IMG/VR virus record: IMGVR_UViG_3300031182_000006
Length of the DNA: 20,000 nt
Direction: 5' to 3' (one strand)
Origin: an uncultured virus (IMG/VR IMGVR_UViG_3300031182_000006)
Lineage: Duplodnaviria > Heunggongvirae > Uroviricota > Caudoviricetes
The notes below the pieces were generated by a model. The model worked only from the letters and a program-made list of their open reading frames with translations, was not told where the DNA came from and ran no database searches. Of this stretch, positions 385 through 17,271 are shown one piece after another. The position numbers and the translations under genes are program-made. Position 1 is the first letter of the stretch; each line of letters starts with the position of its first letter.

Positions 385-396
385 AACATTATATTA
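385..396 (+). promoter_or_regulatory. Late-type phage promoter AACA-N6-TA
   Basis: AACA TTATAT TA lies about 47 nt upstream of ATG 443 and matches the AR9 late consensus as I recall it. The context CTAAAACATTA is identical to the minus-strand site at 11676-11691. Confidence 0.6.
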
Positions 397-442
397 ACCT
401 AATGTAGAATAAATATTTTTACTGTAAGGGGGACGATGAAAC

Positions 443-1084
443 ATGTTTGACAATATCCCAAACATAAATTTTAAGAAAACAAGCAGAAATCCCACGATCG
501 ACTCAGCCGATAGTAACTACGAGCTCCCCTTCTATAAAGATATTGATTATTTTTCCAATATAGATAATTTTGTCAACTTTATTAATGCTACCAAGAGAAT
601 GGTCAGAAGATCTAAAGATTATGATATGTACAAAGCTTATATTATAAATGAAGTTGGCCTCGAAAGATGTCAGGTTCTTTCTAATGTTGAGGGTGATGAC
701 AACGTCGATATTGAAATGCATCATGGACCCATTCTTACACTTTTCGACGTGTTGCAAATAATGGCCGACCATCTCCTGAATAACGGAGAAAAATTAACCA
801 CATTCGATCTCGCCGATCTGTGCTTGGAAGAGCACTTTAATAATAATATCCAGGTTGTTATGTTATCTAAAACTGTTCATGAGCAGGTACATGAAGGAAA
901 CATTTTCATCAACTTTAAACAAGGTTTTGGTGATATTAATACGTTTCTCCGTAAATATAAAGACGGAATAAGTAAAGAACACATCAATAAAATTCAAGCA
1001 TATATTGATAAATCAAAACAATATGACAGTTTTGATAATGGCGTTCTCAAACTTTCCGGTTTTGTTAAAAACTGGAATGAATAA
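443..1084 (+). CDS. HNH-like (His-Me finger) jumbo-phage protein, paralogue of 10684..11352
   Basis: 213 aa, SD AAGGGGG; motifs C..IEMHHGP.TLFD and LSKTVHEQVHEGNIFI. Confidence 0.7.
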   Translation: MFDNIPNINFKKTSRNPTIDSADSNYELPFYKDIDYFSNIDNFVNFINATKRMVRRSKDYDMYKAYIINEVGLERCQVLSNVEGDDNVDIEMHHGPILTLFDVLQIMADHLLNNGEKLTTFDLADLCLEEHFNNNIQVVMLSKTVHEQVHEGNIFINFKQGFGDINTFLRKYKDGISKEHINKIQAYIDKSKQYDSFDNGVLKLSGFVKNWNE

Positions 1085-1111
1085 AAAAGAAAGGGTTTGG
1101 TGAGCACCCAT

Positions 1112-1486
1112 ATGGAAAGAATTTACATTCTCACAGCATTATTTATTTTATTTGCAATTTTAGGTTTATTTATTCTTCGTCCACAGAGACAAAAGGAAAG
1201 TCCTACCATGGAGTATGAGCTTCTGATGGCTATTCTCGAAACAACTATTCAGAGAGAAATTAAAGTGAAAATGGATGATTACACCCTCCGGGGTGTTAAA
1301 TTCCCCTCTGATTACATGGAAGAAGTGCGTGAAGTCTGTCAGCGTATTGTAAGAGGAATCAGTCCTTTTATGTGGGAAGAACTTGAATTCTTTCACCCTA
1401 GAAAATACATTTTAGACAAGATAAATAAGGATGTACAACAATTCTTTATCACTTTCATTCGTGAGAATAAGCCTATAACAAGATAA
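1112..1486 (+). CDS. Hypothetical membrane-anchored protein (one N-terminal TM helix)
   Basis: ORF track starts at TTG 1097; ATG 1112 with SD GGTGAG 7 nt upstream is more likely. Hydrophobic segment IYILTALFILFAILGLFIL followed by RPQRQK. Confidence 0.75.
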   Translation: MERIYILTALFILFAILGLFILRPQRQKESPTMEYELLMAILETTIQREIKVKMDDYTLRGVKFPSDYMEEVREVCQRIVRGISPFMWEELEFFHPRKYILDKINKDVQQFFITFIRENKPITR

Positions 1487-1491
1487 AAAAA

Positions 1492-1523
1492 ATAAATGCC
1501 TAACCATATGGTTAGGCATTTAT
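1492..1523. terminator. Bidirectional intrinsic terminator
   Basis: Perfect 32-bp palindrome ATAAATGCCTAACCATATGGTTAGGCATTTAT between convergent genes, flanked by A/T tracts. Confidence 0.85.
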
Positions 1524-1527
1524 CTTT

Positions 1528-2049
1528 TTAGTACGTAAGCATGAATGAATCCATGACGTCATTGAATTTTCGAGCAATGACGTGAATGTTAGACGGAATC
1601 ATGACCTGATACGTTTCCATTTCCAGGTCACGATCAGTCAGACTGCGCACCGGTCTAGCCCGGATTCCATACTCCTTATGCAGGAAAGTGAAGATATAGG
1701 AGATCGTCTTTCTGTCGTCCCACCGGCGAGAATGGAAATTCGGTTTACAATTGAACCGATCTCCATATTCGTTTATGTGTTCCCAGTTTTGACGAACAGA
1801 AATGAAGAATTCGATGAACGTCTTGGCAAGAGCTGCATTGTTTTTGAAGAGCTCGTTCTCGATACCGATAAGTGAATATTGTGTATCAACTTCATTCATG
1901 GCCGGCTCTGTGTACATACCGACATCCTTAATTTCAACCCTGTTGTCGACCGCAAAATCGAAAATCTTGCGATCAATGTTACTCTCATACGCCCTACTGC
2001 CAACCACCGTAGGGTCTTTTGCGATGACGAGAAAGACTTTGGTTGCCAT
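1528..2049 (-). CDS. Hypothetical protein
   Basis: ORF of about 173 aa; SD AAGGAG (2060-2065) 10 nt before ATG 2049 (track uses TTG 2055); has its own promoter motif and terminator. Confidence 0.8.
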   Translation of the reverse strand: MATKVFLVIAKDPTVVGSRAYESNIDRKIFDFAVDNRVEIKDVGMYTEPAMNEVDTQYSLIGIENELFKNNAALAKTFIEFFISVRQNWEHINEYGDRFNCKPNFHSRRWDDRKTISYIFTFLHKEYGIRARPVRSLTDRDLEMETYQVMIPSNIHVIARKFNDVMDSFMLTY

Positions 2050-2093
2050 TTTCAAATCGCTCCTTATTTATTTTATAAATAATATTCGGTTTT

Positions 2094-2102
2094 ATAATAT
2101 AT
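2094..2102 (-). promoter_or_regulatory. Early-type phage promoter motif ATATATTAT
   Basis: Exact motif about 45 nt upstream of the start codon; recurs upstream of several minus-strand units. Confidence 0.55.
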
Positions 2103-2117
2103 ATTTCAATTTCCAAT

Positions 2118-2873
2118 CTATACCAAAATACTTATGAGTGGTATTAAATATCTATTGAAATTGTAATTAATATTTATTTTATTAATGTCTCTTACATCCA
2201 TTGCTCCAATACTTTCGTTGAAAAGACTCTCGTTAAGTCTAAAAAGAGACTGTCCATTCAGTTCCCGATAGAAGCCCAAATCGAGAGTCTTATTCTTATA
2301 TTCTTCAATAAAACTCCTTAGAAGGGTAATAACTTTCTTTCTCGATGATATCTCATTCATTTTAAAGAAATTGTGTAGAAAATCAAGCATGTATGGTTTA
2401 TGGAGTTCCAATAATTCATCTTTTATTCCTTTAACATGAATGTCATGATTTTTATTATAATAAAATTCATATTTATTCAAATAATAATACGAAGTGTAAA
2501 AATTCTTCTCAACGAATTTAATGTTATCAAACTCTGTGTTACTACAACGTTTCAGGGAAATTACTGCGTCTTTCTTGATAGATAAAACATCGTCTGACTC
2601 TAAGCTATTACTTTCAAAAAACCAACGTCGCACTTCAACGAATTTCTCATTAAGAGCTTTACCAAATTCTTTATCGGCTTTAATATATAAACCTATCTGG
2701 ATGGCTCTATGTTGTTTAGATAGGCGATCCAAATATTTTATTCTTTCCTCACTCAATAACTTAAAACGCTTCACAAGGTTAAATCCTGCTTCCTGTATAT
2801 CATATTCGATTATTTCATTCGATATCAAATATGGAATATCTTTATTTAAATAATTATGTTTTTTATATAACAT
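2118..2873 (-). CDS. Small family-B DNA polymerase-like (palm-only) protein
   Basis: 251 aa; motif A-like IIEYDIQEAG, motif C-like VLSIKKDAV, downstream HVKGI; no exonuclease domain. Confidence 0.55.
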   Translation of the reverse strand: MLYKKHNYLNKDIPYLISNEIIEYDIQEAGFNLVKRFKLLSEERIKYLDRLSKQHRAIQIGLYIKADKEFGKALNEKFVEVRRWFFESNSLESDDVLSIKKDAVISLKRCSNTEFDNIKFVEKNFYTSYYYLNKYEFYYNKNHDIHVKGIKDELLELHKPYMLDFLHNFFKMNEISSRKKVITLLRSFIEEYKNKTLDLGFYRELNGQSLFRLNESLFNESIGAMDVRDINKININYNFNRYLIPLISILV

Positions 2874-2890
2874 TGGGAATCCTCTCCCGC

Positions 2891-3424
2891 TTAAGAAGTA
2901 GATGTCGCCACACCGCCATTTATAAAATTATCTAATATGTTAGTCACAAATTTCATATAATCCTCTCGGAATTTATAATCTCTCGAATGGAGATCCGTAT
3001 CAAAGATTCTAACAGACCTCTCCTCCATATAAAGTTGATAATTCTTAGGTTTCATTTCCGTTATTAAAAATATTCTGCCTTTATATGTATAGAAAGGTAT
3101 AGAATCCCTCAAGACAAAATATTCTCTTGAAGGTCTTAAGAAACCAATGACCCTAGCCTTATCCTCTACAGTAATAAGTTCATTTTGAATATATCTAAGA
3201 AATTTGAATATAAAAAGAGTTTTATTATTTAAAAATTCCGCTTTTATAATGATATTTTCTTTAGTCGCTTCCATTTCTCTCAATTTAATATTCTCTTCCC
3301 TTGTTAATAACTGCGTCAATTCAATAAACCTACCCAATGTATATTTATCTTTATCAGGATACACATTTATCATAAAAAAAGGATTTATCATATTAATTGA
3401 ATCTTTAATAGGTTCATTTTTCAT
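2891..3424 (-). CDS. Hypothetical protein, tandem paralogue of 3470..3985
   Basis: 177 aa, SD AGGAGG; shared blocks PDKDKY, FYTYKGRIF, IFDTD...YKFREDY. Confidence 0.85.
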   Translation of the reverse strand: MKNEPIKDSINMINPFFMINVYPDKDKYTLGRFIELTQLLTREENIKLREMEATKENIIIKAEFLNNKTLFIFKFLRYIQNELITVEDKARVIGFLRPSREYFVLRDSIPFYTYKGRIFLITEMKPKNYQLYMEERSVRIFDTDLHSRDYKFREDYMKFVTNILDNFINGGVATSTS

Positions 3425-3469
3425 GAAAAAATTCCTCCTGTGATGATGGATAATTATTAATTTTTACCA

Positions 3470-3985
3470 TTACTTATTTTTCTCCACTGAGTCTATAAAT
3501 TCATTAAATATTTTCGGAATGTAATCTTTATAATCATCCTCAAAAATATATTCTTTCATACGATTATCTGTGTCCCAAATTTCAACTCGTTGTGTTTTAA
3601 ACAAAGAATGATCAGATCTTTCTTTCTTCACTATAAATATTTTTCCTTTATAAGTATAAAAATAAATTACATCTCCTGAATACATGTAGCTTTCAGGCAG
3701 TAAAAGACCAATAAATTTAGCTGCTTCTTCCGATAATAAGAACTGATCCTGGATAAAATTAAGAACTTTAAACAGAGATTCAATTTCTTTAATTAAAGTG
3801 CCCTCTACAATCATATCATCTTGGCTAGTATCAACCCTATTTGAACCAATACCGCTTTCTGTTTTCAATAAATCAATTAATTTTGTCACATTTCTTTGGT
3901 TATATTTATCCTTACTCGGGAAAAATTTAATAAAGAACGAAGGAAACGATCTGTTCTCTGTAGATGGTTCGAAATTATACTTCAT
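3470..3985 (-). CDS. Hypothetical protein, tandem paralogue of 2891..3424
   Basis: SD AAGGAG then ATG 3985 (track uses GTG 3994); blocks PSKDKY, FYTYKGKIF, IWDTD...YIFEDDY. Confidence 0.85.
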   Translation of the reverse strand: MKYNFEPSTENRSFPSFFIKFFPSKDKYNQRNVTKLIDLLKTESGIGSNRVDTSQDDMIVEGTLIKEIESLFKVLNFIQDQFLLSEEAAKFIGLLLPESYMYSGDVIYFYTYKGKIFIVKKERSDHSLFKTQRVEIWDTDNRMKEYIFEDDYKDYIPKIFNEFIDSVEKNK

Positions 3986-4059
3986 AAATAACACACTCCT
4001 TCTACATTCCTTATTAGTCGATTGTTTTTTGAACCGTTAAATTCAAATATTGCGTATAA

Positions 4060-4068
4060 ATAATATCT
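4060..4068 (-). promoter_or_regulatory. Early-type motif variant AGATATTAT
   Basis: One mismatch to ATATATTAT, upstream of the 3985-2118 unit. Confidence 0.4.
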
Positions 4069-4088
4069 ATTTCTTTTGTATTTTAATT

Positions 4089-4100
4089 AACAGTAAAATA
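4089..4100 (+). promoter_or_regulatory. Late-type promoter AACA-N6-TA driving a putative small RNA
   Basis: AACA GTAAAA TA directly precedes the GC-rich structured element; no plus-strand ORF follows. Confidence 0.5.
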
Positions 4101-4160
4101 AGGGTGCTCACCCACCTTAGAATCGTGTAGGGACCTTAAATAGGACCTACACGGTTTTTA
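4099..4160 (+). ncRNA. Putative small antisense RNA (sRNA-1)
   Basis: 5' hairpin TAAGG..CCTTA; 3' stem AATCGTGTAGG (4121-4131)/CCTACACGGTT (4146-4156) with a G-U pair valid only on + strand, then T tracts; 4102-4112 is the exact reverse complement of 1099-1109. Confidence 0.5.
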
Positions 4161-4170
4161 ATTTTTTACA

Positions 4171-4200
4171 AAAAAATAAACCTTCGTAAAGAAGGTCTAT
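4171..4200 (-). terminator. Intrinsic terminator after the metallopeptidase gene
   Basis: ACCTTC-gtaaa-GAAGGT stem with an A tract on its left (U tract on the minus strand). Confidence 0.6.
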
Positions 4201-4209
4201 GTATAGATA

Positions 4210-4713
4210 CTAATCCGCTATCCATTCAATATTCTTTACTCTCATTTCCATTTCAAAATGTATCCTAAAAATATCCTCCTGAGTTAAGTTCAGTCTTTCC
4301 ATATTTTCTTCTAGTATTTGTGCGGTCTCTCTAAGTGCCAGTATAGCATTTTCAAAACCTATAATCTTAGCCGCAACAGCATCTGCTTCCAACTCGTCTC
4401 TAGATACTCGTCCTTCGATTCTTGCTTTTTCTCTCTCGTCTCTAATATAACTATCATCGACATGACCTAACGTATTATGCGCTAATTCATGAAAGATAAC
4501 AAACCTTAAGAAATTTTCCGAATAAAGATTGGAGAATTCTTCATCGATAAAGACACCCATGGAAAGTGCAAAGAAAGGATTATTGAATAACTTTAAAGAA
4601 GGACCTACAAATACGGGAGCTGAATAATTACTATATTCCTTAAACTTCTCAGAATTGATGATCGCTATATCATATTTAGAACCTAAAACTTTCTCATATG
4701 TTTTTTGCATCAT
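4210..4713 (-). CDS. HEXXH zinc metallopeptidase (ImmA/IrrE- or M48-like)
   Basis: FVIFHELAHNTLGH plus downstream ELEADAVA third-ligand motif; SD GGAGG before ATG 4713/4710. Confidence 0.8.
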   Translation of the reverse strand: MMQKTYEKVLGSKYDIAIINSEKFKEYSNYSAPVFVGPSLKLFNNPFFALSMGVFIDEEFSNLYSENFLRFVIFHELAHNTLGHVDDSYIRDEREKARIEGRVSRDELEADAVAAKIIGFENAILALRETAQILEENMERLNLTQEDIFRIHFEMEMRVKNIEWIAD

Positions 4714-4788
4714 TAACACCTCCAAAATTTTATTTATTATCGTATATCAAATTTATAATGTGTAATCGTCTATTCAAAAAAGACGAAA

Positions 4789-4826
4789 AAAATAAGAGTC
4801 GTAGTATATACTACGACTCTTATTTT
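4789..4826. terminator. Intrinsic terminator of the 8179-4835 operon
   Basis: Perfect 38-bp palindrome AAAATAAGAGTCGTAGTATATACTACGACTCTTATTTT. Confidence 0.85.
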
Positions 4827-4834
4827 CCATTCGA

Positions 4835-5506
4835 TCAGGATGCAATTTTCTTGAGGATCTTTTTGATGAGTTTCTTCTTGCCCATATCCTCATCAACCTT
4901 GATCCTCTTATCGGCAGCAATCTTTCGAAGCTCTTTTCTACTGAGCTTCTCAAGTTTCTTCCGAATTTTATCTTTGTCGATATCAGCATTGAGCTGAACA
5001 CCGTGGCGTTCCATGGATTCGAACTTACGACCGAGAATCTTAGTCACTTCATCTTTGTTCTTGATGCTTCCAGCTTTCTCAGGTCCTTTTTCCAGGTACT
5101 TATCCCACGAATACGTCTTAAGTTGATACGTTGCTTCAATGTATTCACAGAGAAGCTTGACGTATTTTCTTTCCCATTCCGACTTCGAGCACAGAATGAC
5201 AACCTTCATGTCATATACGACAGCTGCTTTGACCATAACCGAGATAAACGCCTCGACTTCCGGATCTTGCAGCTGATTCATATATGCCTTCTTATAAGGT
5301 TTACTTTCCCCACTCACATAAAGGCTGATTACTGACGGAGTTGGAATGAGACGAGGGAAGCTCATGATGTTTTTCGGTTTATTCTCAATGTCTTTGATCT
5401 TGATGTCTTCGCTAATGAGAATAAACTGATACTCGTCGGTATTCTTCACATTCGGAAGAAACTCTTTAAAGAACTTCTTCGAGTTCATTCTGATAATTAC
5501 ACCCAT
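4835..5506 (-). CDS. Hypothetical protein with C-terminal Rho-N/HeH-like nucleic-acid-binding motif
   Basis: 223 aa, SD GGAGG, overlaps the kinase stop; C-terminus LEKLSRKELRKIAADKRIKVDEDMGKKKLIKKIL. Confidence 0.75.
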   Translation of the reverse strand: MGVIIRMNSKKFFKEFLPNVKNTDEYQFILISEDIKIKDIENKPKNIMSFPRLIPTPSVISLYVSGESKPYKKAYMNQLQDPEVEAFISVMVKAAVVYDMKVVILCSKSEWERKYVKLLCEYIEATYQLKTYSWDKYLEKGPEKAGSIKNKDEVTKILGRKFESMERHGVQLNADIDKDKIRKKLEKLSRKELRKIAADKRIKVDEDMGKKKLIKKILKKIAS

Positions 5507-7167
5507 TGGTTTTTACCTCCACGATTGAATTTATTGTTAAGTCTATCACGATCTGCTCGCTCTTGAAGATCTTCATACTCGTCTTCATATTTGTTTTGAG
5601 ACTCGTCGTCTTGTTCGTCAGTTAAACCACCAAGAGCTTGAAGTTCCCGACGAAGTTTTTCTGCCTCATCTTCTTCATCGGATTGAACCTCCTCCGAGGG
5701 ATCTTCCTGGGGTTCAGTATCCTCATTTTCAGATGCCGGCTCGGAAGAATCCACATCTTCCTCTTCCGTGGTCTCAGCTTGCTCTTCTTCAGGCGTTTCG
5801 TCAACAGTTACATCTTCGTCACCACCATCTTTGTTTTCAGTCGCAACAGGTGCCGATTCATTTTGCACTTCTTCAGACGATTCATCCTTTTTCGGCTCCT
5901 CTACAGCTACGACTTTCGTCTCCTCAGTGCTCTGAACGGTAACATTCCCGTCGCTAATCTGGGTAGTTTTCGTATGTTCGACCACTACCGTCGGCACAGG
6001 TTCAGTTTGTTTACCACTCTTTGCGGAGGAGATTTTCTTAAGGTCTTCCATTGCGCGCTCATATGCGTCTTCAGGGTCAACATGAAATTGCTGCCGGTAT
6101 CGAGGACCCTGGTTTTGGTTACCATGTGGTGGCTTCCGTTCTTGTTGTTTTTGCTCTTCCACCAGCTTCTTCAATTTCACTTTGTCAGTTATTTCTACAC
6201 TGTTTCGATAAACCTTTACTTGATACTGGTTTCCATTTTCCGCCGGTCGGTTAATGGTGGGAGTATCAACGCGTCTCATACTCTTCAAGAGTTCGAGGGT
6301 GTTGTCGTATGCGTCTCCTTCTCTCCCGGAATTGAATTCGCCAGGTCTTCCTTGGTTCATCTCTTCTTCCTCCTCTACATCGTCTTTGGGAGTGAAATAC
6401 TTGGAGGGCTTTTCCTCCCTCCTGGTGGTAGTTTCACTCGCCGTTTCAAACTCTCCGACTTCACTTGTGAGTTTGAAACTCATTTCCTTTGCTATAATGT
6501 TTTCTTGCATTTCTTGTTCAAATGGTATCATTCTCCTTAGGTCTTCAAATTTATACTTTTTGCCGCACTTCGGACAAACCATTTCATAGAAATTGACATC
6601 GTAATCGAGAATGGTCTGATCGTTACGGCAAATAATCTGCTCTGGATTCACCCTATAAATATGGGCGAAGTCCAGAATCACAAGCTTACCGTCATCTCTA
6701 TACCCCCAGTTAAGAAAGTTCTTCGTAACGGCACCCACGTCTCCCAACAAATAGGTTTCCGCAAGTACCGCCAAGATCTGTCTCACCTCATCAATCCGTT
6801 CAATGAATTCTTCCCGAGAGATTACCGTCACATATTCATGAACAGAAATGAGGTCATTAGTTTCATAAGTTTTAACTACAAATGGCTGAAGCTCTTTGGA
6901 TAATTTAAACTCGTTTACATTATCACGTTTACCTTGTTGGTCAAACGCAATTTTGAAAACGAAGTTGTCGATAAGGATCGCCATCCGGTTTGTACCTGGA
7001 CCAAGCTCGGCATGATCAATACCATGCTTGTTCAGAACATTGAGAATCATGTCTGCTTTGACATTGTTGTTCCCAATTGTTCTGTCCATACAAATCCGGT
7101 CGAGATCCACCAATGCTTCAGGAGTAAAATATTGGTGTATTCTACTACGAAGTCTTTTGGTTGGCAT
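5497..7167 (-). CDS. Protein kinase-like (PKL/APH fold) protein with Zn-ribbon and acidic disordered C-terminus
   Basis: 556 aa; G-loop LGPGTNR, VFKIA lysine, helix-C NVNEF, catalytic loop LGDV..NFLNWG, VILDFA (DFG-like), then ICRND...CPKCG and an E/D-rich tail. Confidence 0.75.
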   Translation of the reverse strand: MPTKRLRSRIHQYFTPEALVDLDRICMDRTIGNNNVKADMILNVLNKHGIDHAELGPGTNRMAILIDNFVFKIAFDQQGKRDNVNEFKLSKELQPFVVKTYETNDLISVHEYVTVISREEFIERIDEVRQILAVLAETYLLGDVGAVTKNFLNWGYRDDGKLVILDFAHIYRVNPEQIICRNDQTILDYDVNFYEMVCPKCGKKYKFEDLRRMIPFEQEMQENIIAKEMSFKLTSEVGEFETASETTTRREEKPSKYFTPKDDVEEEEEMNQGRPGEFNSGREGDAYDNTLELLKSMRRVDTPTINRPAENGNQYQVKVYRNSVEITDKVKLKKLVEEQKQQERKPPHGNQNQGPRYRQQFHVDPEDAYERAMEDLKKISSAKSGKQTEPVPTVVVEHTKTTQISDGNVTVQSTEETKVVAVEEPKKDESSEEVQNESAPVATENKDGGDEDVTVDETPEEEQAETTEEEDVDSSEPASENEDTEPQEDPSEEVQSDEEDEAEKLRRELQALGGLTDEQDDESQNKYEDEYEDLQERADRDRLNNKFNRGGKNQWV

Positions 7168-7195
7168 CTATCTCACCTTTTCTTAGTTTTATTTT

Positions 7196-8179
7196 TTATT
7201 TAAAGATGTCTGCAACTGTAAACGATTCCATTTCAGCCTGGAAGTCTTCGAAGCTATCATAACCTCCATCTGTCATCAGTTGGACAATCAGATTATCCTG
7301 ATTATATGCGTCTTTCTTCTTCTTTTTCTTTTTCTTCTTTTCATCTTTAAAGATCTTCGAAATTCTCTTGCTAACACCAGCTTTACGCATGAGTTTAACA
7401 GAATTCCAGCCGAGCTTACCAAGCTCTCTATAGATGGAAACTTCGTCCATCGATTCTTTATTCATATATTGACCACGGAAGAATACAACCTCACGTTCTT
7501 CTTCTCTGGTATCACGAAGTTTCTTAGCAAACGTACCGTCGCAATAATCCGACAAAGAGAAGACAGTATCATCACTTTCTTTCTTGTAATTTCCGCTATT
7601 TTTGGTCCGGAAATATTCTTCCAAGAATTCAATACTATTCGAAATATTTTTCAAAGAAATTTTACGAGACGACTTAATCTCACCTTTTCTGATGAGTTTC
7701 TTAACAATTTTCTTTTTCTTTTTATCAACGTTTTTACTTCCGAAAACCCGAACAACGCCTTCTTTATTTTTTTCATTCTCAGGAACGTATAAATTCTCGA
7801 TCTTATCGAGTGTTTCTTCATTGATATCGTAACTTCTCCGCTTACTGATGATAATATTGTTTTTCAATGAAAATTTATTGAGTTCGTTAAGTTTGAGTCC
7901 CGGTTTAGGCGGAATAAACTCTGTAACCTGATTATATTTAATTTTCAATTTAAGAATTTCAACGCCACCATACTTCTTTGCCAACAACGACATGTATTCA
8001 TTATAGATGGTAACTGCTTTGAGAAAATCTGTGATGTCCTTATATCTTCTGCGAATCCTTCTAGCTTCCCGTTCAAGTTCGCTGGAAGGTTCGTCGTTGA
8101 ATCTATGATAGTTATCACCGAAATCTTGCACATATACTTCGAGTAATGCGCTTTTAGCAGTTCCGAAATTAATCTGCAT
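7196..8179 (-). CDS. Hypothetical Lys-rich protein
   Basis: 327 aa, SD GAGGAGG; poly-Lys tracts DKKKKKIVKK and EKKKKKKKKKD. Confidence 0.85.
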   Translation of the reverse strand: MQINFGTAKSALLEVYVQDFGDNYHRFNDEPSSELEREARRIRRRYKDITDFLKAVTIYNEYMSLLAKKYGGVEILKLKIKYNQVTEFIPPKPGLKLNELNKFSLKNNIIISKRRSYDINEETLDKIENLYVPENEKNKEGVVRVFGSKNVDKKKKKIVKKLIRKGEIKSSRKISLKNISNSIEFLEEYFRTKNSGNYKKESDDTVFSLSDYCDGTFAKKLRDTREEEREVVFFRGQYMNKESMDEVSIYRELGKLGWNSVKLMRKAGVSKRISKIFKDEKKKKKKKKKDAYNQDNLIVQLMTDGGYDSFEDFQAEMESFTVADIFK

Positions 8180-8218
8180 TTATTTTTCCTCCTCATTAAT
8201 ACGATTTTCGATGTAGTT

Positions 8219-8227
8219 ATAATATAT
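8219..8227 (-). promoter_or_regulatory. Early-type motif ATATATTAT
   Basis: Exact motif 40 nt upstream of ATG 8179, just downstream of a terminator. Confidence 0.55.
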
Positions 8228-8245
8228 ATTCTATTTTTAAATAAA

Positions 8246-8289
8246 AAATGTTAGAGTGATATTTACTAAAAAATATCACTCTAACATTT
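8246..8289. terminator. Intrinsic terminator after the Nudix gene
   Basis: About 19-bp stem AAATGTTAGAGTGATATTT / AAATATCACTCTAACATTT. Confidence 0.8.
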
Positions 8290-8316
8290 GTCTTTATTTT
8301 TTATTCTTGTTTCTAT

Positions 8317-9138
8317 TTAGGAGGTTAGAACGTCAATCGCCCAGCTATCGAGCTCATCTTTTAGACGGTCCACCTCGGAGAGATCAAAGCAGAAAACATC
8401 ATGTTTCTCAGGCTCCCCAGATTTGATCTTACTGATGAAATCTTCGTTTATCTCGTTTACATCTATTTGGTAAATAAGCCCTATATGTTCGAGATCTGTG
8501 AATGTTTTTGTTTTAAGCAGACCAAAAGTTGGGTACTCAGGAATGGATTTGAGGATTTTGTCTTTGATCGAACTATCCTCAAACATAAGTTCTTCTTCGA
8601 TCTCTCTCTTAATAGACAGACGCAAATAATTTATTTCGGGATTAAAATAGATCTCAGGACTGAATTCGACGTGTCCTTGGATCAATGTGATCTTTTTTGC
8701 TATACGATTATTTTCATTAGTTTTAAGCATAATCACTTTCTTCCCGTCAGTAATAAATGCGCCTACGACAATCTGTCTGTATCTAACATCATATTCAGCG
8801 TCACAGCGCTGAATAAATCGTACAAAAGGATCTTGTGTATAAAGCAATTTATTACTAAAAACAAAGTTTCCGTCATGAGCCAGTTCTTGTTCTTTTGAGT
8901 TTACATTCAAAGTAAAGACGGGCCAATCCGAATCCTCTGTGTAAATTATGTCAGATGCCAGACAGAGAAGATATTTTGAATATTTTTCTTTGTCGAACCT
9001 GAGAAGAGAGTTTCTCAGCTCATATTTGATATAGTTATAGCTATCGGAATCTACTGGGTGTTTACGGAGTTCAGACTCAAGATCCCGAATCCTCTCCAAT
9101 GTTACGGGACTCTCCCGATCCATATAATTTTCGGACAT
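8317..9138 (-). CDS. Nudix hydrolase
   Basis: 273 aa; QGHVE...SIKREIEEEL Nudix box with an insertion; YRQIVVGAFI and HIGLIY resemble YmaB-type Nudix proteins. Confidence 0.75.
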   Translation of the reverse strand: MSENYMDRESPVTLERIRDLESELRKHPVDSDSYNYIKYELRNSLLRFDKEKYSKYLLCLASDIIYTEDSDWPVFTLNVNSKEQELAHDGNFVFSNKLLYTQDPFVRFIQRCDAEYDVRYRQIVVGAFITDGKKVIMLKTNENNRIAKKITLIQGHVEFSPEIYFNPEINYLRLSIKREIEEELMFEDSSIKDKILKSIPEYPTFGLLKTKTFTDLEHIGLIYQIDVNEINEDFISKIKSGEPEKHDVFCFDLSEVDRLKDELDSWAIDVLTS

Positions 9139-9171
9139 TTAAAAGCTCCTTTCCGTTTCTACTTCCCCATA

Positions 9172-9810
9172 TTAATTTGTTTTTTGAGATTTATTTTTTA
9201 ATTTATATTCTTCATATGCTTCTTTAACACCTTTATCACAGAGCGAGTTTTGAAGGATGATAAACGCAAATTCTTCATCGCTAACCTTACAATTATTAAA
9301 TTTTTCAAATTTTTTCTTAACTTGTTTCATATTTTTACTAGAAACATGTGAGTTTACATGAAAGAATTCAACCTTGATCTTTTTCTCTTTCTTCAACCAC
9401 TCTATATATGCAAAAGATTTCAATATCTCTTCTTGATTGATAACTGGCTCATTGTTCGAATTATACAAAATACCATTTTTCGCTCTCCTTATCCAACCAT
9501 ATATCCATTTAGTTAAGGAATTATAATAAAGCATCGAATCGGTAAAAACTTTTACTTGATATTCTCCTTTATATAATTCACTTTCTTTGATTTTTTGAAC
9601 AACCCATTCCAAACCTTTTCTAATAGCATTGATTTCTGAGAAATTTCCTGTCGCATTTACATTGACATTTTTCTCCTCATATGCCAACTCAGGCTTAGAA
9701 TTATCTATAACATGCAACACACGAACTGATGTTACAGAATCGAATTTAGGTGGTTTTTCTTGGGTTCGAAATTGGCCACCATCAGTAAATATGAGAAACT
9801 TTATCATCAT
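9172..9810 (-). CDS. rnhA: Ribonuclease HI
   Basis: IFTDGG (D), NFSEINA (E), VFTDS (D), WIYGW, HVNSH, NSLCD (D): the complete RNase HI catalytic set; start at ATG 9810/9807 after SD GAGGTG. Confidence 0.9.
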   Translation of the reverse strand: MMIKFLIFTDGGQFRTQEKPPKFDSVTSVRVLHVIDNSKPELAYEEKNVNVNATGNFSEINAIRKGLEWVVQKIKESELYKGEYQVKVFTDSMLYYNSLTKWIYGWIRRAKNGILYNSNNEPVINQEEILKSFAYIEWLKKEKKIKVEFFHVNSHVSSKNMKQVKKKFEKFNNCKVSDEEFAFIILQNSLCDKGVKEAYEEYKLKNKSQKTN

Positions 9811-9817
9811 AGTCACC

Positions 9818-10132
9818 TCATTCTTCTATGCATGTTATGTATTCGGGTGGTATAACATCAATCGCAATTAATTCATCATCATATACTCCCTGAATAAGTG
9901 GGAAATCATCCGGTAGAGTTACCTTTAAAATTACAGTTTCCTCATCTTCGCCAAAGAAATCTTCGTCCATCCAACTACCCAAAGCATCTTCTAATGCTTC
10001 AATTGTTTTAAATAAATAAACTCCTTTCGGATCATTTACACGTATGGTATTTTTACCAATTTGTGGAATAAGCCCTTGTTTCATTATGGATTCTTTATTT
10101 TCTGCTTTTGTTATATGATAACAATAACGCAT
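9818..10132 (-). CDS. Stand-alone ADP-ribosyltransferase-fold protein (Tpt1/KptA C-lobe-like)
   Basis: 104 aa; YHIT...IMKQGLIP...GVYLF...VILKV...DDELIA..VIPPEYI. Confidence 0.65.
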   Translation of the reverse strand: MRYCYHITKAENKESIMKQGLIPQIGKNTIRVNDPKGVYLFKTIEALEDALGSWMDEDFFGEDEETVILKVTLPDDFPLIQGVYDDELIAIDVIPPEYITCIEE

Positions 10133-10134
10133 TT

Positions 10135-10200
10135 TTACATCACCTTACCTAAAAGTTGCTCAAAAAAATGAACTATAATATAAGGCGGCCGCCTTGCCAT
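10135..10200 (-). CDS. Possible 21-aa micropeptide MARRPPYIIVHFFEQLLGKVM
   Basis: Perfect SD AAGGAGG (10210-10216) 9 nt before ATG 10200; stop ends 3 nt before ATG 10132. Alternatively this is only the antisense face of sRNA-2. Confidence 0.35.
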   Translation of the reverse strand: MARRPPYIIVHFFEQLLGKVM

Positions 10201-10263
10201 CTGGTTTGACCTCCTTCATCCCATTGGGCTTGTATACATTCGTTGTATACAGGCCGCCTTTTT
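10181..10263 (+). ncRNA. Putative structured small RNA (sRNA-2) with exposed anti-SD
   Basis: GC-rich island; AAGGCGGCC (10182-10190) pairs with GGCCGCCTT (10252-10260); 12-bp stem 10227-10238/10244-10255 with a plus-strand G-U; T tract; CCTCCTT at 10210-10216; preceded by AACT-ATAATA-TA. Confidence 0.45.
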
Positions 10264-10275
10264 ATTCTATAAATA

Positions 10276-10319
10276 AAAAATATACCGTATACCTTCATTG
10301 AGGTATACGGTATATTTTT
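10276..10319. terminator. Bidirectional intrinsic terminator
   Basis: 19-bp stem AAAAATATACCGTATACCT / AGGTATACGGTATATTTTT. Confidence 0.85.
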
Positions 10320-10656
10320 ATTGTCTTTTTACCGAAATGACATCAAATTTATACTCATTAAATCCGTTAAACAACGAATCATCAACTTCAAGTAAAAGGG
10401 AGTTACGAATTCTTCCTTTGATATATGCATCATTGTCATATCTAAACTCTTTTTTCACAGCTTCGGTAAGCTGGTCTTTGAAGTTTTTCATTGCCGCATA
10501 AGGTACAAATTCTCCGGTCTCGCGGCCAGCAAAGTCGTAATCTTCTAGTTTAAGTTCGGGAAAACCAATAACAATACAGCTTATTTTCTTCGTTTCATCA
10601 TTTCTCCCAATTAGTACCCTAAACGAAAAGATAGTTGGTTTATCATAGAACATCAT
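10318..10656 (-). CDS. Hypothetical protein
   Basis: 112 aa, SD GGAGG, in an operon with the upstream genes. Confidence 0.8.
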   Translation of the reverse strand: MMFYDKPTIFSFRVLIGRNDETKKISCIVIGFPELKLEDYDFAGRETGEFVPYAAMKNFKDQLTEAVKKEFRYDNDAYIKGRIRNSLLLEVDDSLFNGFNEYKFDVISVKRQ

Positions 10657-10683
10657 ACCCTCCGCCGTCCTCTCCCAAGATCA

Positions 10684-11352
10684 TTATTTAGTAACAATTT
10701 CGTCTAGAGTTTCTGGAAGAATGAATCCATCGACCTCAAGATAAGTATATTTCGTTTCAATAATACTCATATCTTGTTTTTCAATTTCTTTCGACATTTT
10801 AAGTTTAATTTGGAGCATTTCCTTGAGATCGTCAGAGATATATTCATCATATTCCTCGATGAATTGAATGAAATTTCCTCTGACGTTTTGAAGCGGGATA
10901 AAAAGTTTACCAGAATGTACCAATTGATGAACAGTGGTTGACAAGGGAATAAGACCGACCTTGTTCTGATAATGAAGTTTCATAACTTCTTTCGCAATCT
11001 TGAGCGGTCTGATCGGATTTCCCTCACGAATCCATTTTTCAAGCACAATTTGGGTAATATCATAAAGGGTAAAAGGTTCGTGATGAATCTCAATGGACAC
11101 TTTACCTTTACCGTTTTTTACCACACCTTGAAAGAATGAGCATTGTGTCATGTCAATATATTCACGCAGGTAACCAGTATAGTCTTTATTTTCAAGAGAT
11201 GAGCGAACATCCCGCTCGATGCTTTTGATTAACTTAACTTTATCTTTATCAGATGTAATGACAACATTTCGACTTGTCGGGGGAATATTTTCTATTCTTT
11301 TTACCTCTATTTTACTATCATTGGTGTAAGATTCAATCTTAGGTAATCGCAT
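10684..11352 (-). CDS. HNH-like jumbo-phage protein, paralogue of 443..1084
   Basis: 222 aa; QC..IEIHHEPFTLYD and LSTTVHQLVHSGKLFI align with ORF 443. Confidence 0.7.
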   Translation of the reverse strand: MRLPKIESYTNDSKIEVKRIENIPPTSRNVVITSDKDKVKLIKSIERDVRSSLENKDYTGYLREYIDMTQCSFFQGVVKNGKGKVSIEIHHEPFTLYDITQIVLEKWIREGNPIRPLKIAKEVMKLHYQNKVGLIPLSTTVHQLVHSGKLFIPLQNVRGNFIQFIEEYDEYISDDLKEMLQIKLKMSKEIEKQDMSIIETKYTYLEVDGFILPETLDEIVTK

Positions 11353-11402
11353 TTTTTAACCCCCTCTACTGAAGTTTTAATTCATAGTGTTACATGACGG
11401 AT

Positions 11403-11651
11403 TTAGATTTCCACAAGCATATTTTCTACAACGTTTTCAACCTTTTCCTCAATATCTTCATTGTCATGATCGTATTCAGGAATATTTGAAACCAATTTCT
11501 TGATTTCAGGATCGTTTTCCGCACCGATCACAGCAATATCGGGGTCATTGAGAAAAATATCTTTAACGTCTACCGAATTTTCAAGTACAGAATCATTCAC
11601 AGATTCCTGTTCTTTATATTTATGAATAGATTTTTTAAGATCGTTAAACAT
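11403..11651 (-). CDS. Small acidic hypothetical protein (late-type promoter)
   Basis: 82 aa, SD AAGGGGAG; D/E-rich. Confidence 0.8.
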   Translation of the reverse strand: MFNDLKKSIHKYKEQESVNDSVLENSVDVKDIFLNDPDIAVIGAENDPEIKKLVSNIPEYDHDNEDIEEKVENVVENMLVEI

Positions 11652-11675
11652 ACCAATCTCCCCTTATGAGGTTTT

Positions 11676-11687
11676 TACATTAATGTT
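11676..11687 (-). promoter_or_regulatory. Late-type promoter AACA-N6-TA
   Basis: AACA TTAATG TA 25 nt upstream of ATG 11651; shares CTAAAACATTA with the site at 381-391. Confidence 0.6.
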
Positions 11688-12126
11688 TTAGGACGACGTA
11701 GTTGATTATCTCTTTCATATCAAAATACTCATCGGGGGTAACGCATGATTCTCCATCTTCATCCAAATCTTCAAGTATCCTCTGTATAAAAATAAAAAAC
11801 TGAGCTAAAATCTTTCTCTCCTTTTTACCAAATTTAATATATTTCGCCATTTTCTTTATTTCGCTATAAAATAAACCCAATTCTTCAATCCTACCTAAAG
11901 CTATTGCTTTAGCCTCATCCAACTCATAGTCGAATAGGGCCATCTTATACAAAGGATTCCATCTCAATTCACGATCTTCAATATCCTCCACCCCGGTTGT
12001 ATCTATATCCGACACTTTACAAATGTCATAGTTCTTAAATCCTCTTGATTTCAAAAATGACTTTAATATCTTCTTTTTCCTAGCGTAACCAACAAAATTA
12101 TTATTTCGAAAGATCAAATAGATCAT
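11680..12126 (-). CDS. Hypothetical protein, paralogue family A
   Basis: 148 aa; N-terminal Y-hydrophobic strand, F-x-x-(S/Q)-R...Y-x-I-x-K-V, C-terminal YIKFGKKERKIL. Confidence 0.8.
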   Translation of the reverse strand: MIYLIFRNNNFVGYARKKKILKSFLKSRGFKNYDICKVSDIDTTGVEDIEDRELRWNPLYKMALFDYELDEAKAIALGRIEELGLFYSEIKKMAKYIKFGKKERKILAQFFIFIQRILEDLDEDGESCVTPDEYFDMKEIINYVVLKH

Positions 12127-12608
12127 TCGCTCACATTCCTTCCAATTATTTTAAATGCCATTTTTCCAAGATTGAAGAAAATATCCTCAGGTGAATCTTC
12201 ATCGGGAGCTATTTCATATTCGAATCTATTGGAATATTCATTGAGATGATGAATGACCATGGAAATAAATTCCAATACTGTTGTATATTCATCATCCTTC
12301 AGTTTCAAAAATGGTAATATTCCCTCAAAAAGATTTTTTAGTGTAGAATTTATATCCAAGATCATTTGATCAAATGATATACTAAAGTATTCGAACTCAT
12401 CTGGGAACATTACTACTCCCGAGACAAGTACTGCATTTATGTCTATTTCTCTTAAATATTCTTCTATTTCATCAGCATCAACTTTCTCAATTTTGTATTG
12501 TTTCATATCTCTTTGCTTCTTGAAACATTTTAAAATTTCTTTATTTGGTATAATCCCTATAAGGGAGTAATCTTGGTCTATATCAAGTACTGCATATACT
12601 TTTCCCAT
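12123..12608 (-). CDS. Hypothetical protein, paralogue family A
   Basis: 161 aa, SD AAGGAGG; FKKQRDMKQYKIEKV, ILPFLKLKDDE. Confidence 0.85.
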   Translation of the reverse strand: MGKVYAVLDIDQDYSLIGIIPNKEILKCFKKQRDMKQYKIEKVDADEIEEYLREIDINAVLVSGVVMFPDEFEYFSISFDQMILDINSTLKNLFEGILPFLKLKDDEYTTVLEFISMVIHHLNEYSNRFEYEIAPDEDSPEDIFFNLGKMAFKIIGRNVSE

Positions 12609-12622
12609 AATTTTACCTCCTT

Positions 12623-13096
12623 TTATGGGTCAAATACTCCAAGGGCAGGTTCTATAATTTTATCCATTTTGAAAAATCTATCGTTAACCATTTGGTATTC
12701 GAATATGTTACATTCCATAGATTTTTCACTATATTCTTTTTGATGCATGACGACTATCTCAATGAAATCCATCAAAATAGTCATCTCATTTTTATCTAAT
12801 TTAATGATAGGCAGTATCTCATTGATCAACTTGAGAATCAAGCTTTCCAAATTACTTATATTATCGACTAGATTTTCTATGATGTATTCATTTTCATCGG
12901 AGAATACAACATAACCATTCATCAATTCAGCAGAATAACCTTTTTTAATTAGCTCTTTGATTATTTTCGGATCGTCAACTGATTCTATTCTATATCCCGC
13001 CATGTCTCTCTGTGTTTTAAATAACTTATGTTCATCCTTTGAAAGTATGGCACGTATAATGCCATCGTTATTTAATACAACATAATGCTCTTTCAT
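12623..13096 (-). CDS. Hypothetical protein, paralogue family A
   Basis: 157 aa; FKTQRDMAGYRIESV, ILPIIKLDKNE. Confidence 0.85.
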   Translation of the reverse strand: MKEHYVVLNNDGIIRAILSKDEHKLFKTQRDMAGYRIESVDDPKIIKELIKKGYSAELMNGYVVFSDENEYIIENLVDNISNLESLILKLINEILPIIKLDKNEMTILMDFIEIVVMHQKEYSEKSMECNIFEYQMVNDRFFKMDKIIEPALGVFDP

Positions 13097-13335
13097 TCAT
13101 CGTCACCACTATTATTGAGAAGTTTTCCTAAACGTATCACTTCTTTTACTTCTTCTTTACTTTTAGCTTTACGAAGTGCTTTAGCTTTCTTTTTCAAAAT
13201 CTTTATAGCTTTCTCAGCAAGTTCTTGTTTCTCAGGTGATAATCTAAGATAGCCGACATAGTTTTCAAGTTCATCAGACACAAAGGTTAAATTTTTAGAA
13301 AATTTATCGACAGTTTCACGCACTTCTTTTTTCAT
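13093..13335 (-). CDS. Small basic helical protein, possibly the C-terminal module of family A alone
   Basis: 80 aa, SD GAGGAGG; ELENYVGYLRLSPEKQELAEKA resembles DLEHYIKYYSMGKKEKKVLLKA of 17272..17787. Confidence 0.8.
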   Translation of the reverse strand: MKKEVRETVDKFSKNLTFVSDELENYVGYLRLSPEKQELAEKAIKILKKKAKALRKAKSKEEVKEVIRLGKLLNNSGDDE

Positions 13336-13365
13336 TTAAATTACCTCCTCAAATTGTCTTTATTA

Positions 13366-13374
13366 ATGATATAT
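13366..13374 (-). promoter_or_regulatory. Early-type motif variant ATATATCAT
   Basis: 31 nt upstream of ATG 13335, downstream of a terminator. Confidence 0.5.
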
Positions 13375-13393
13375 AAACAATAAAAAATTAAAA

Positions 13394-13418
13394 AAAGAGA
13401 GCTATAAGAACTCTCTTT
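13394..13418 (-). terminator. Intrinsic terminator
   Basis: AAAGAGAG / CTCTCTTT stem plus A tract. Confidence 0.6.
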
Positions 13419-13962
13419 ATTCAAGAACTAAAGAAAGTCTTTCAAAATACTTTCTCGTAGAGGAAATCATCTTTATAATACGGAGATTCGTGAAGAAATC
13501 AAAATCTTCATTAGTTTCAATCTTTTGTTTCTTGTTACCATAGTTGTCGTTGAAATAATTAATGATGTCGCCTAATGAAACTATTACAGGTAAGAAAAGA
13601 TCAATCGCCCGTTTTAATTTGAAAACTGTATCTTCAGAAATAAGTAATGTGAGTTCCCTCATATTCAAATTTTTGGATAACTCCATAATTAAAGTGGCTA
13701 CCAAATTCTTAGTATATATTAAATCAATACATTTTCTGAATTTCTTCATTTGACTATTTATTACCGTAATTTTTTCATTCAATTTTTCATCGATGGGAAG
13801 ATTATGTCTTTTCGCGTAAGTATAAAAGGAACCCATAAATATAGGATCTCGTTCATCATCAGAATATTCAATTCCGTATGTCAGTATGGTAGATAGAACC
13901 ATGAGTGTTTCCGTTCTCGGAAATCCAATCATCTTAGAAATCTTGGCTTTACTTTTTTTCAT
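13417..13962 (-). CDS. Hypothetical protein, tandem paralogue of 14061..14618
   Basis: 181 aa, SD GGAGG; PRTETLMVLSTILTYG and LKRAIDLFLPVIVSLGDII align with the neighbour. Confidence 0.85.
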   Translation of the reverse strand: MKKSKAKISKMIGFPRTETLMVLSTILTYGIEYSDDERDPIFMGSFYTYAKRHNLPIDEKLNEKITVINSQMKKFRKCIDLIYTKNLVATLIMELSKNLNMRELTLLISEDTVFKLKRAIDLFLPVIVSLGDIINYFNDNYGNKKQKIETNEDFDFFTNLRIIKMISSTRKYFERLSLVLE

Positions 13963-14001
13963 TGTACTACCTCCAAGTATTTTTATTTCTTAATCAAAGT
14001 A

Positions 14002-14010
14002 ATTATATAT
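14002..14010 (-). promoter_or_regulatory. Early-type motif variant ATATATAAT
   Basis: 40 nt upstream of ATG 13962. Confidence 0.45.
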
Positions 14011-14023
14011 AAATAAAAAAAAT

Positions 14024-14051
14024 AAGAAAATGCCTTTGTAGACATTTTCTT
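14024..14051. terminator. Intrinsic terminator
   Basis: AAGAAAATG / CATTTTCTT stem with A and T tracts. Confidence 0.6.
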
Positions 14052-14060
14052 TTTTATAGT

Positions 14061-14618
14061 TCAAAAGACTTTTAACATCTTTTTCACAGCATCGTTAGTG
14101 GTCGCTATCATTTCCAAAGCATAAAACTGTTTTGAAAATTCTTCGTCTGGTATATGTGTAACTTCTGGTGTAAATAAGTTTACAACTTTTCTGAATTTAC
14201 CCTTTATATATTTAACCACATCTTCCAGAGCATCAAGTACTGGGATGAGGAGTGTTATCGATTTCTTTATATATACAGACTCTTCTTCTGTTATAAAAAT
14301 AATTGATTCTTTTACGTTTTCCATTGCTAAAAGTTGGTTGAATATGTGCTCCATTCGTATATTGGGGAAATGTTTATTTATATTTCTATTGAAGCGACGT
14401 AAGGCTTTTTGAAGATTTTCATATTTATCACAATATTCTTTCTCTTCGAATAAACCACTTTTTTCAGAGAATTTTTTCAATAACCTGAAATTTATTATGT
14501 TTTTGAGATCATATCTCTTAGTCACATCATTAGCAAACGCCAATAAAGTAGTCATTGCTACCGTTGTATCGAGAGGTGGGACTTTAAATTCTTTCAAAGC
14601 AATATTATTATTTGTCAT
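14061..14618 (-). CDS. Hypothetical protein, tandem paralogue of 13417..13962
   Basis: SD GGGAGG 9 nt before ATG 14618 (track uses GTG 14624); PPLDTTVAMTTLLAFA, IKKSITLLIPVLDALEDVV. Confidence 0.85.
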   Translation of the reverse strand: MTNNNIALKEFKVPPLDTTVAMTTLLAFANDVTKRYDLKNIINFRLLKKFSEKSGLFEEKEYCDKYENLQKALRRFNRNINKHFPNIRMEHIFNQLLAMENVKESIIFITEEESVYIKKSITLLIPVLDALEDVVKYIKGKFRKVVNLFTPEVTHIPDEEFSKQFYALEMIATTNDAVKKMLKVF

Positions 14619-14654
14619 ATTCACAAGCCTCCCTATTTAATAAAATGAAAAGAA

Positions 14655-14689
14655 AAAACAATGAGGGATTTTTTATCCCTCATTGTTTT
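14655..14689. terminator. Intrinsic terminator
   Basis: 15-bp stem AAAACAATGAGGGAT / ATCCCTCATTGTTTT. Confidence 0.85.
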
Positions 14690-14693
14690 CACA

Positions 14694-15725: not shown

Positions 15726-15754
15726 ATCGCTGTTCCTCTCTTTCTCTTTATTGC

Positions 15755-16465: not shown

Positions 16466-16491
16466 TTTTCTAACCCCCAATAAATAGCATT

Positions 16492-16502
16492 TATTATTAG
16501 TT
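16492..16502 (-). promoter_or_regulatory. Motif AACTAATAATA (third promoter-like class)
   Basis: Lies between a terminator and the tmk start; same pattern at 16790-16800 and 17826-17836. Confidence 0.4.
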
Positions 16503-16514
16503 TATAGAGAAATA

Positions 16515-16553
16515 ACTTAGTAGAGGGGTAGAAAATCCACCCCTCTACCAAGT
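16515..16553 (-). terminator. Intrinsic terminator
   Basis: GTAGAGGGGT (16520-16529) / ACCCCTCTAC (16539-16548), extended by ACTT/AAGT. Confidence 0.75.
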
Positions 16554-16568
16554 CATCAATTAATCAAA

Positions 16569-16658
16569 TCATTTCAGCGACTTCAGGAATTCATTGAATT
16601 TTTCTTTGTTAGAGATGATACATTCAAGTTTGCGTATATCGATCTCCTTCTTTTTCAT
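16569..16658 (-). CDS. Possible 29-aa micropeptide MKKKEIDIRKLECIISNKEKFNEFLKSLK
   Basis: Lies between a promoter motif (16741-16749) with SD AAGGAGG (16672-16678) and a terminator; a competing 13-aa ORF 16624-16665 has better SD spacing. Confidence 0.4.
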   Translation of the reverse strand: MKKKEIDIRKLECIISNKEKFNEFLKSLK

Positions 16659-16740
16659 ATCCCATTTTATACCTCCTTTTCATTTTGAATATTTTCCGTT
16701 CTCTGTAGGATGAATATATTATTCATCTATATTCAGATTA

Positions 16741-16749
16741 ATAATATAT
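16741..16749 (-). promoter_or_regulatory. Early-type motif ATATATTAT
   Basis: Exact motif upstream of the micro-ORF unit. Confidence 0.5.
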
Positions 16750-17254: not shown

Positions 17255-17271
17255 AGCTGAGTCCTCCCAAT

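Follow-up and report, generated by a model that had tools for sequence, protein, structure and literature searches.

The last 20 kb of a jumbo phage contig probably gives rise to a plus-strand small RNA of about 60 nt, made from a compact intergenic unit among genes of the opposite strand. We tentatively propose that this RNA also represses gene 1112-1486 by pairing with the Shine–Dalgarno (SD) region of its ribosome-binding site (RBS), which would make it a late trans-acting anti-RBS sRNA of an AR9-like jumbo phage. A promoter motif, a 5' hairpin and a terminator biased toward the plus strand together support the delimitation of a non-coding unit of this length, and the CUCACC loop and 5' arm of its first hairpin are, by computation, complementary to the SD region of gene 1112.

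An AR9-like phage and its promoter motifs

The window, i.e., the whole 20,000-nt stretch analyzed here, is the end (approximately 192219-212218) of a 212,288-bp contig of an AR9/PBS1-like jumbo phage. A tblastn search with the protein encoded at 2118-2873 matched 21 records, all of them jumbo phages of the AR9/PBS1 kind at 29–41% identity, including the Bacillus phages BpSp, AR9, PBS1, Goe21 and Internexus, the Yersinia phage phiR1-37, S6-like phages of Staphylococcus and the Listeria phage LPJP1. At the DNA level, none of 50,697 phage records matched 3400-4800, 400-1600 or 4085-4170, and an IMG/VR search with an exact 21-mer from the candidate unit returned the source contig only. Most of the 30 window proteins scanned received no family assignment; those that could be recognized are an RNase H, a thymidylate/deoxynucleoside-kinase-like protein, a YpsA-SLOG protein and an M48-like metalloprotease. 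The kinase-like protein is encoded on the minus strand at 15755-16480, and in a PBS1/AR9-like dU phage it may act as a dUMP-directed kinase. Two paralogues of PHROG 12252 are present in the window, one at 443-1084 (plus) and one at 10684-11352 (minus).

In AR9, dRNA-seq defined an early promoter consensus, AAATATATATTAT-(6N)-G, and a late one, AACA-(6N)-TA/G, in which the last base is the start; the available part of the same study also describes late antisense and internal promoters and, by RNA-seq, predicted terminators that stop transcription strongly (PMC5312081). The late motif is recognized by the non-virion polymerase on the dU-containing template strand, according to the accessible text of a second study (PMC5449584). 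Other marks of an AR9-type late unit are uracil at template positions −11/−10, a polymerase that the phage encodes together with its promoter-specificity subunit, and a 5' end mapping to +1. Early-consensus matches with at most one mismatch were found in the window at 2087-2106, 4053-4072 and 16734-16753, all on the minus strand, intergenic and upstream of minus-strand genes. The late motif AACA-N6-TA occurs 15 times, with seven copies on the plus strand and eight on the minus strand, and four of these lie 24–46 nt upstream of a gene start (385 before 443, 4026 before 3985, 9181 before 9138 and 11687 before 11651), distances that match the typical spacing of AR9 late leaders in the available part of Table S3. 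Judged by its sequence, the phage is AR9-like and is predicted to use both the early and the late AR9 promoter motifs.

So short a motif can also arise by chance, as illustrated by the plus-strand copy at 17794-17805, which is simply the RBS region of gene 17272-17787 read on the opposite strand. An unlisted minus-strand ORF of about 32 aa with a good SD was noted at 16567-16665, inside a 405-nt 'intergenic' gap with minus-strand terminators on both sides; its early-consensus promoter match lies at 16753-16734 (minus, one mismatch).

A candidate plus-strand unit in the minus-strand array

Plus-strand genes are confined to 443-1084 and 1112-1486, while 1528-19993 is a single array of minus-strand genes, as an earlier note made from the sequence of this stretch had described the region. 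Within this array, the interval 3995-4209 contains, from right to left, the terminator of gene 4210-4725 (a hairpin at 4200-4176 on the minus strand plus a T tract), an A/T spacer, hairpin 2, hairpin 1 and the plus-strand promoter motif (Table 1). At its left end lie the divergent minus-strand early (4072-4053) and late (4026-4015) promoter motifs of gene 3470-3985. The plus-strand unit therefore exactly occupies the gap that a divergent promoter and a convergent terminator leave between them, and the hairpin 2 terminator opposes a minus-strand terminator, as at convergent units.

Table 1. Positions in the window of the candidate small RNA, its predicted target and the neighboring signals.
Feature	Position	Strand	Basis or remark
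Late-promoter motif upstream of operon 443-1084 / 1112-1486	385-396	+	AACA-N6-TA scan
Proposed target site, SD region (GGUGA) of gene 1112	1092-1109	+	Duplex −29.5 kcal/mol
Target gene, 124-aa protein	1112-1486	+	N-terminal hydrophobic helix and helical domain
Late-promoter motif of gene 3470-3985 (29-nt leader)	4015-4026	−	AACA-N6-TA scan
Early-promoter match AAATAGATATTAT-N6-G of gene 3470-3985	4053-4072	−	One mismatch; divergent from the sRNA promoter
Late-promoter motif AACA-GTAAAA-TA, AACAGTAAAATA	4089-4100	+	Predicted start A4100; AR9 consensus
Predicted non-coding RNA, ~56–68 nt	4100-4167	+	A4100 to the U tracts
Hairpin 1, 6 bp (4101-4106/4113-4118), loop CUCACC 4107-4112	4101-4118	+	Carries the whole seed
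Hairpin 2 and U5-AA-U6, predicted intrinsic terminator	4119-4167	+	Fold, strand energies
Terminator of gene 4210-4725	4166-4200	−	Faces hairpin 2 across a shared A/T spacer

The AACA-N6-TA element that the note had placed at 4089-4100 was confirmed and satisfies all six conserved late-promoter positions. Together with the two preceding bases (4087-4100), it agrees at 13 of 14 bases with the mapped promoter of AR9 gene g022, as given in the available part of Table S3. The element is preceded by TT, not by AA as in the four gene-linked motifs of the window; the idea that TT disqualifies it was discarded on the basis of the same table, in the accessible part of which at least seven promoters mapped by dRNA-seq, e.g., that of g022, carry TT before AACA. 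Taken alone, the motif is weak evidence, with six fixed bases and 15 copies in the window.

The stretch 4099-4165 folds at −26.9 kcal/mol with a z-score of −4.5, and none of 200 shuffles folded equally well. The note's description of an 11-bp stem with one G-U pair was roughly right: the stem of hairpin 2 (4119-4131/4146-4158) comprises 13 bp, two of them G.U, and is capped by a 3-bp tip; U5-AA-U6 follows on the plus strand at 4155-4167. Because both G.U pairs turn into C.A on the minus strand, the hairpin is weaker there (−15.8 vs −20.4 kcal/mol on the plus strand), and the minus strand has no T tract downstream. Hairpin 2 thus has what is expected of an intrinsic terminator, i.e., a G+C-rich hairpin with a U tract directly after it on the transcribed strand. 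Among the plus-strand terminator-like intergenic hairpins of the minus-strand array, only this one and another at 10227-10255 are not mirrors of minus-strand terminators.

Only two plus-strand ORFs of at least 20 aa overlap 4030-4205. One is a 26-aa TTG frame at 4050-4130 that lacks an SD and opens before the predicted transcription start; the other is the end of ORF 3798-4040. The unit 4100-4167 is without a credible ORF, and the earlier claim of about 60 nt of non-coding sequence holds in this respect. A scan of the window against Rfam gave no match at the gathering threshold, the best one below it being STnc370 (27.3 vs 54 bits, E 0.079), and ARAGORN found no tRNA in the candidate region.

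RNA cover, strain variation and relatives

Sixteen of the 22 listed runs hold at least half of the sampled words of 3000-5000, and region 400-4800 was compared with the contigs of four runs, two of RNA (the metatranscriptomes X15 and X16) and two of DNA (X5 and X8). The RNA contigs of X15 end at 4033 and restart at 4191, and X16 has none in 3997-4324, where it should be borne in mind that RNAs of 60 nt are usually lost from libraries of this kind, so that the gap speaks neither for nor against a transcript; the 4034-4190 gap in the RNA contigs is bridged by the DNA contigs of X5 and X8. Target gene 1112-1486 is covered by RNA contigs in both X15 and X16. The strains of all four runs differ from the window by less than 1%, and at this low divergence the target site is unchanged in all four, and the seed, covered by X5 and X8 only, is unchanged among the listed differences. 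X5 is identical to the window over 4010-4317. In X8, a TT insertion after 4161, within the U tract, is the only change in the unit among about 18 of its 29 differences.

Protein-guided searches returned the source contig and one 5.2-kb relative (L004, 68% at the amino acid level), with no further match in genome_contigs. The relative lacks the whole of 2891-4830, a 1.9-kb block of three genes and the candidate RNA, and joins homologues of 2118-2873 and 4835-5506 within approximately 175 bp. The candidate and its three neighbor genes are therefore an accessory insertion or deletion. The block 2891-4830 marks a variable accessory island.

Complementarity to the start region of gene 1112

Read in reverse complement, the segment GGGTGCTCACC (4102-4112) is identical to GGTGAGCACCC (1099-1109), and just 2 nt separate the latter from the ATG at 1112; this 11-nt match was the central observation of the note, and it was reproduced in the sequence. 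RNAduplex further pairs 4114-4118 with 1092-1096, in agreement with the imperfect flanking extension noted earlier, to give 16 bp in total at −29.5 kcal/mol, with C4113 and U1097-U1098 left unpaired as a 1x2 loop. Opening the sRNA at 4102-4118 costs 6.4 kcal/mol and opening the target 8.9 kcal/mol, so that the net energy is about −14 kcal/mol. The loop CUCACC itself opens for 0.13 kcal/mol and offers six free bases opposite GGUGAG, the SD. Complementarity beyond chance combined with an accessible seed, as expected of a trans-acting sRNA, was thus found. Points against the repression reading are that the seed lies within a hairpin and that the target SD is partly paired.

The note had proposed that gene 1112 should rank top among start regions, which it does among the 31 tested in the duplex scan, at −29.5 vs −20.5 kcal/mol for the next best; other SDs of the GGUGA type in the window score much lower against the seed. 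When both strands of 28.9 kb of the 212-kb contig were scanned, 1092-1109 was the best pairing site. The runner-up (L005:1167-1191, −28.4 kcal/mol) was rejected as bulged and antisense to a gene.

Such a pairing seldom arises by chance, as the note had held. None of 1500 composition-matched shuffles of the 26-nt 5' part reached −29.5 kcal/mol against 30 start regions (best −26.1), and a Watson–Crick run of 11 nt arose in 4 of the 1500. Eight of 3994 window probes of 30 nt paired at −29 or better; two of these are the candidate's, and the remaining six all target the G+C-rich start region of 10318-10656. Distant inverted 11-mers with at least eight G+C number one in the window vs a mean of 0.10 in 300 block shuffles, and 8% of these shuffles contain one or more. 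With up to two mismatches, the seed 11-mer pattern has four window matches vs 0.82 expected, a number reached by none of 200 shuffles, although one of the four is the near-palindrome matching itself. The 8/10 palindromy of GGTGAGCACC and its likeness to an SD favor inverted matches at RBSs. Given the choice among a few dozen features, we put the pairing alone at roughly P = 0.01–0.1; its location, from nt 3 onward in a unit that runs from promoter to terminator, counts as further and largely independent evidence.

The target gene

The ATG at 1112 is backed by a 67%-identical homologue (P0004), encoded on a 2.6-kb contig, that starts at the same Met. An AF2 model of the 124-aa protein (pLDDT 77, from an alignment of two sequences only) has a hydrophobic helix at the N-terminus, residues 2–21, plus four further helices, and it is reasonable on this model to call the protein membrane-anchored, in keeping with the note's description of a membrane protein. 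Its presumed late expression is likewise supported by the position of the gene in a plus-strand operon behind the late-promoter motif at 385-396. The role in lysis or assembly that had been suggested for it is guesswork: the protein has no match in Pfam, PHROGs or the atlas, and its AF2 model found none in BFVD with Foldseek. The operon mRNA is predicted to fold such that the SD region of 1112 pairs with the last part of the preceding gene (~1040-1056), a hint of translational coupling that an sRNA could modulate.

Proposed mechanism and competing explanations

In the mechanism that we propose, the phage non-virion RNA polymerase would initiate at A4100, directed by the motif at 4089-4100, and stop at hairpin 2 and its U tract. 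The resulting RNA, about 60 nt long, would have a stem-loop at its 5' end and the terminator hairpin at its 3' end. The loop would make the first contact with the SD, and pairing would then spread to the 16-bp duplex over 1092-1109. This duplex would hide the SD and lower translation of the membrane-anchored 124-aa protein, possibly also triggering its own cleavage, and the first gene of this late operon would not be affected. As late expression is expected of both RNAs, the effect of the sRNA would be a threshold or a ratio and not an on/off switch. A broader and rather doubtful extension is that AR9-like dU jumbo phages possess a post-transcriptional layer of sRNAs made by the non-virion polymerase, with several units per genome, this one uncoupling the second gene of an operon from the first.

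The promoter, terminator and non-coding evidence would apply equally to a real small RNA whose match to 1112 is incidental and which acts on other phage or host messages, or in a pairing-independent role. Such an RNA would suit the C-rich, anti-SD-like 5' hairpin (CUCACC, CACCUU), with a seed that we take to resemble the 16S rRNA tail, and the target screen spanned 29 of 212 kb, all of it phage sequence. Against an incidental match stand the 16-bp pairing, stronger than in any of the 1500 shuffles, and its lead of 9 kcal/mol over the other 30 start regions, and we consider it unlikely. Without any small RNA, hairpin 2 could be a structural or insulating part of the terminator cluster that separates two minus-strand units, where it might, e.g., halt stray antisense transcripts, with the motif and the 11-mer present by chance. 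The low information of a motif with 15 copies would agree with this, as would the hairpin at 10227-10255, which also adjoins a minus-strand terminator and suggests a recurrent layout, the frequency of G+C-rich inverted 11-mers in shuffled windows (8%) and the selection of the candidate out of many features. However, the plus strand has no AACA-N6-TA between 1437 and 4089 and therefore no known transcript that would have to be stopped there, the promoter motif, seed (nt 3–19) and terminator are contiguous and in the right order, and the pairing energy lies beyond all 1500 shuffles. On balance, we doubt that hairpin 2 is a mere insulator, while granting this explanation some weight.

Two other explanations address the shared 11-mer itself, which runs along local transcription at both loci; this common orientation keeps both of them alive. 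The near-palindromic (8/10) GGTGAGCACC(C) might be a site, at two loci, for a DNA- or RNA-binding regulator of the phage, with pairing as a by-product. Its symmetry (GGTG..CACC) fits such a site, as does the location of one copy at +3 to +13 of the promoter motif and of the other on an RBS, but 28.9 kb of sequence contain no more than two copies, the extra 8.9 kb having none even at two mismatches or fewer, and the pairing of 4114-4118 with 1092-1096 lies outside the palindrome, where a shared protein site would not lead one to expect it. We regard a protein site as improbable. Still less credence is given to the idea that the minus-strand AAGGTGGGTGAGCACCC is what gene loss in a variable region has left of a duplicate RBS or gene start related to that of 1112. 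The equal orientation of the motif relative to local transcription, a similarity that continues as GGTGAGCACCCaTAT / tTAT, and the status of 2891-4830 as an indel between relatives all accord with a relic; yet the homology ends within 15 nt, its local alignment score is equaled by 5% of random segments, the minus strand has no ORF after the motif, and the site lies upstream of an early promoter and downstream of a terminator, outside the minus-strand units.

Comparison with known systems

By analogy, a small RNA made from this unit would belong to no described RNA family and would work like c4 of phage P1 or the C-rich-loop sRNAs of Bacillota. The latter, of the RoxS/RsaE type, are short, host-encoded, conserved RNAs with a terminator hairpin that mask the SDs of many targets. 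The candidate shares with them a C-rich unpaired loop (CUCACC) directed at a G-rich SD, the short length and the terminator hairpin; in contrast to their many targets, it has one long, gene-specific match of 16 bp, and it has no Rfam family. The c4 antisense RNA is processed from a longer transcript and has no sequence relation to the candidate. It is likewise a phage RNA, of P1 and P7, that acts in trans on a phage message, and its loop-displayed complementary stretches, to which we liken those of the candidate, bind around an RBS and block translation, as described in the available part of PMC12197685. Whereas c4 is part of a temperate-phage immunity circuit, the candidate would be a stand-alone late unit of a presumably lytic jumbo phage.

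Intergenic sRNAs of the Pseudomonas giant phage 201phi2-1, detected by ONT-cappable-seq, are also short promoter-to-terminator units without a CDS (PMC11512511, accessible part). There, transcripts were seen without a known target, whereas the present candidate is known from its sequence and has a predicted target; the phage lineage and the promoters also differ. AR9 late units resemble the candidate in the promoter motif, including the T at −1 and the A at +1, and in their intrinsic terminators, but in the available parts of these studies each mapped late start is attributed to a gene, a tRNA or an antisense RNA, and the unit predicted here is intergenic and gene-less (PMC5312081, PMC5449584). 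The accessible portion of PMC5312081 nowhere uses the words sRNA, small RNA or noncoding, and no sRNA of the AR9/PBS1 group is described in the literature searched.

Regulatory RNAs by which lytic phages act on their own messages are scarcely documented. If the proposal is true, a 60-nt RNA and one RBS form a compact, testable pair for studying the tuning of late protein ratios in a jumbo phage that relies on polymerases of its own for transcription. The pair would also provide a handle on the membrane protein of 1112-1486 and a minimal cassette, from promoter to terminator, for transcription by the non-virion polymerase. If the match is due to chance, it illustrates that SD-like near-palindromes are able to mimic sRNA–target pairs.

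Other possible non-coding units

The second plus-facing hairpin with a T tract (10227-10255) adjoins a minus-strand terminator, and upstream of it, within region 10171-10265, lies AACT-N6-TA at 10171-10182. This variant of the motif is present at the mapped AR9 promoters of g057 and g202 (dRNA-seq, available part of Table S3), and a further plus-strand unit may start at approximately 10182. The stretch 10173-10268 folds at a z-score of −5.3. On its minus strand, at ~10201-10136, lies a 21-aa ORF that has a strong SD, GAAGGAGGT, and ends 3 nt before the start of 9818-10132; the region may represent a cis-antisense RNA or a leader peptide, or combine the two.

A gene-less stretch was also noted in AR9 (L006, KU878088), where the late start at 207979 is labeled 'tRNA' in the available part of Table S3. 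ARAGORN places the tRNA-Asn of this region at 208904-208977 (L006 9657-9730), inside the leader that starts at 208874 and is listed under g244. The start at 207979 opens 560 nt without an annotated gene (L006 8662-9222) that contain CACCUCC, and AR9 itself may make an undescribed late non-coding RNA.
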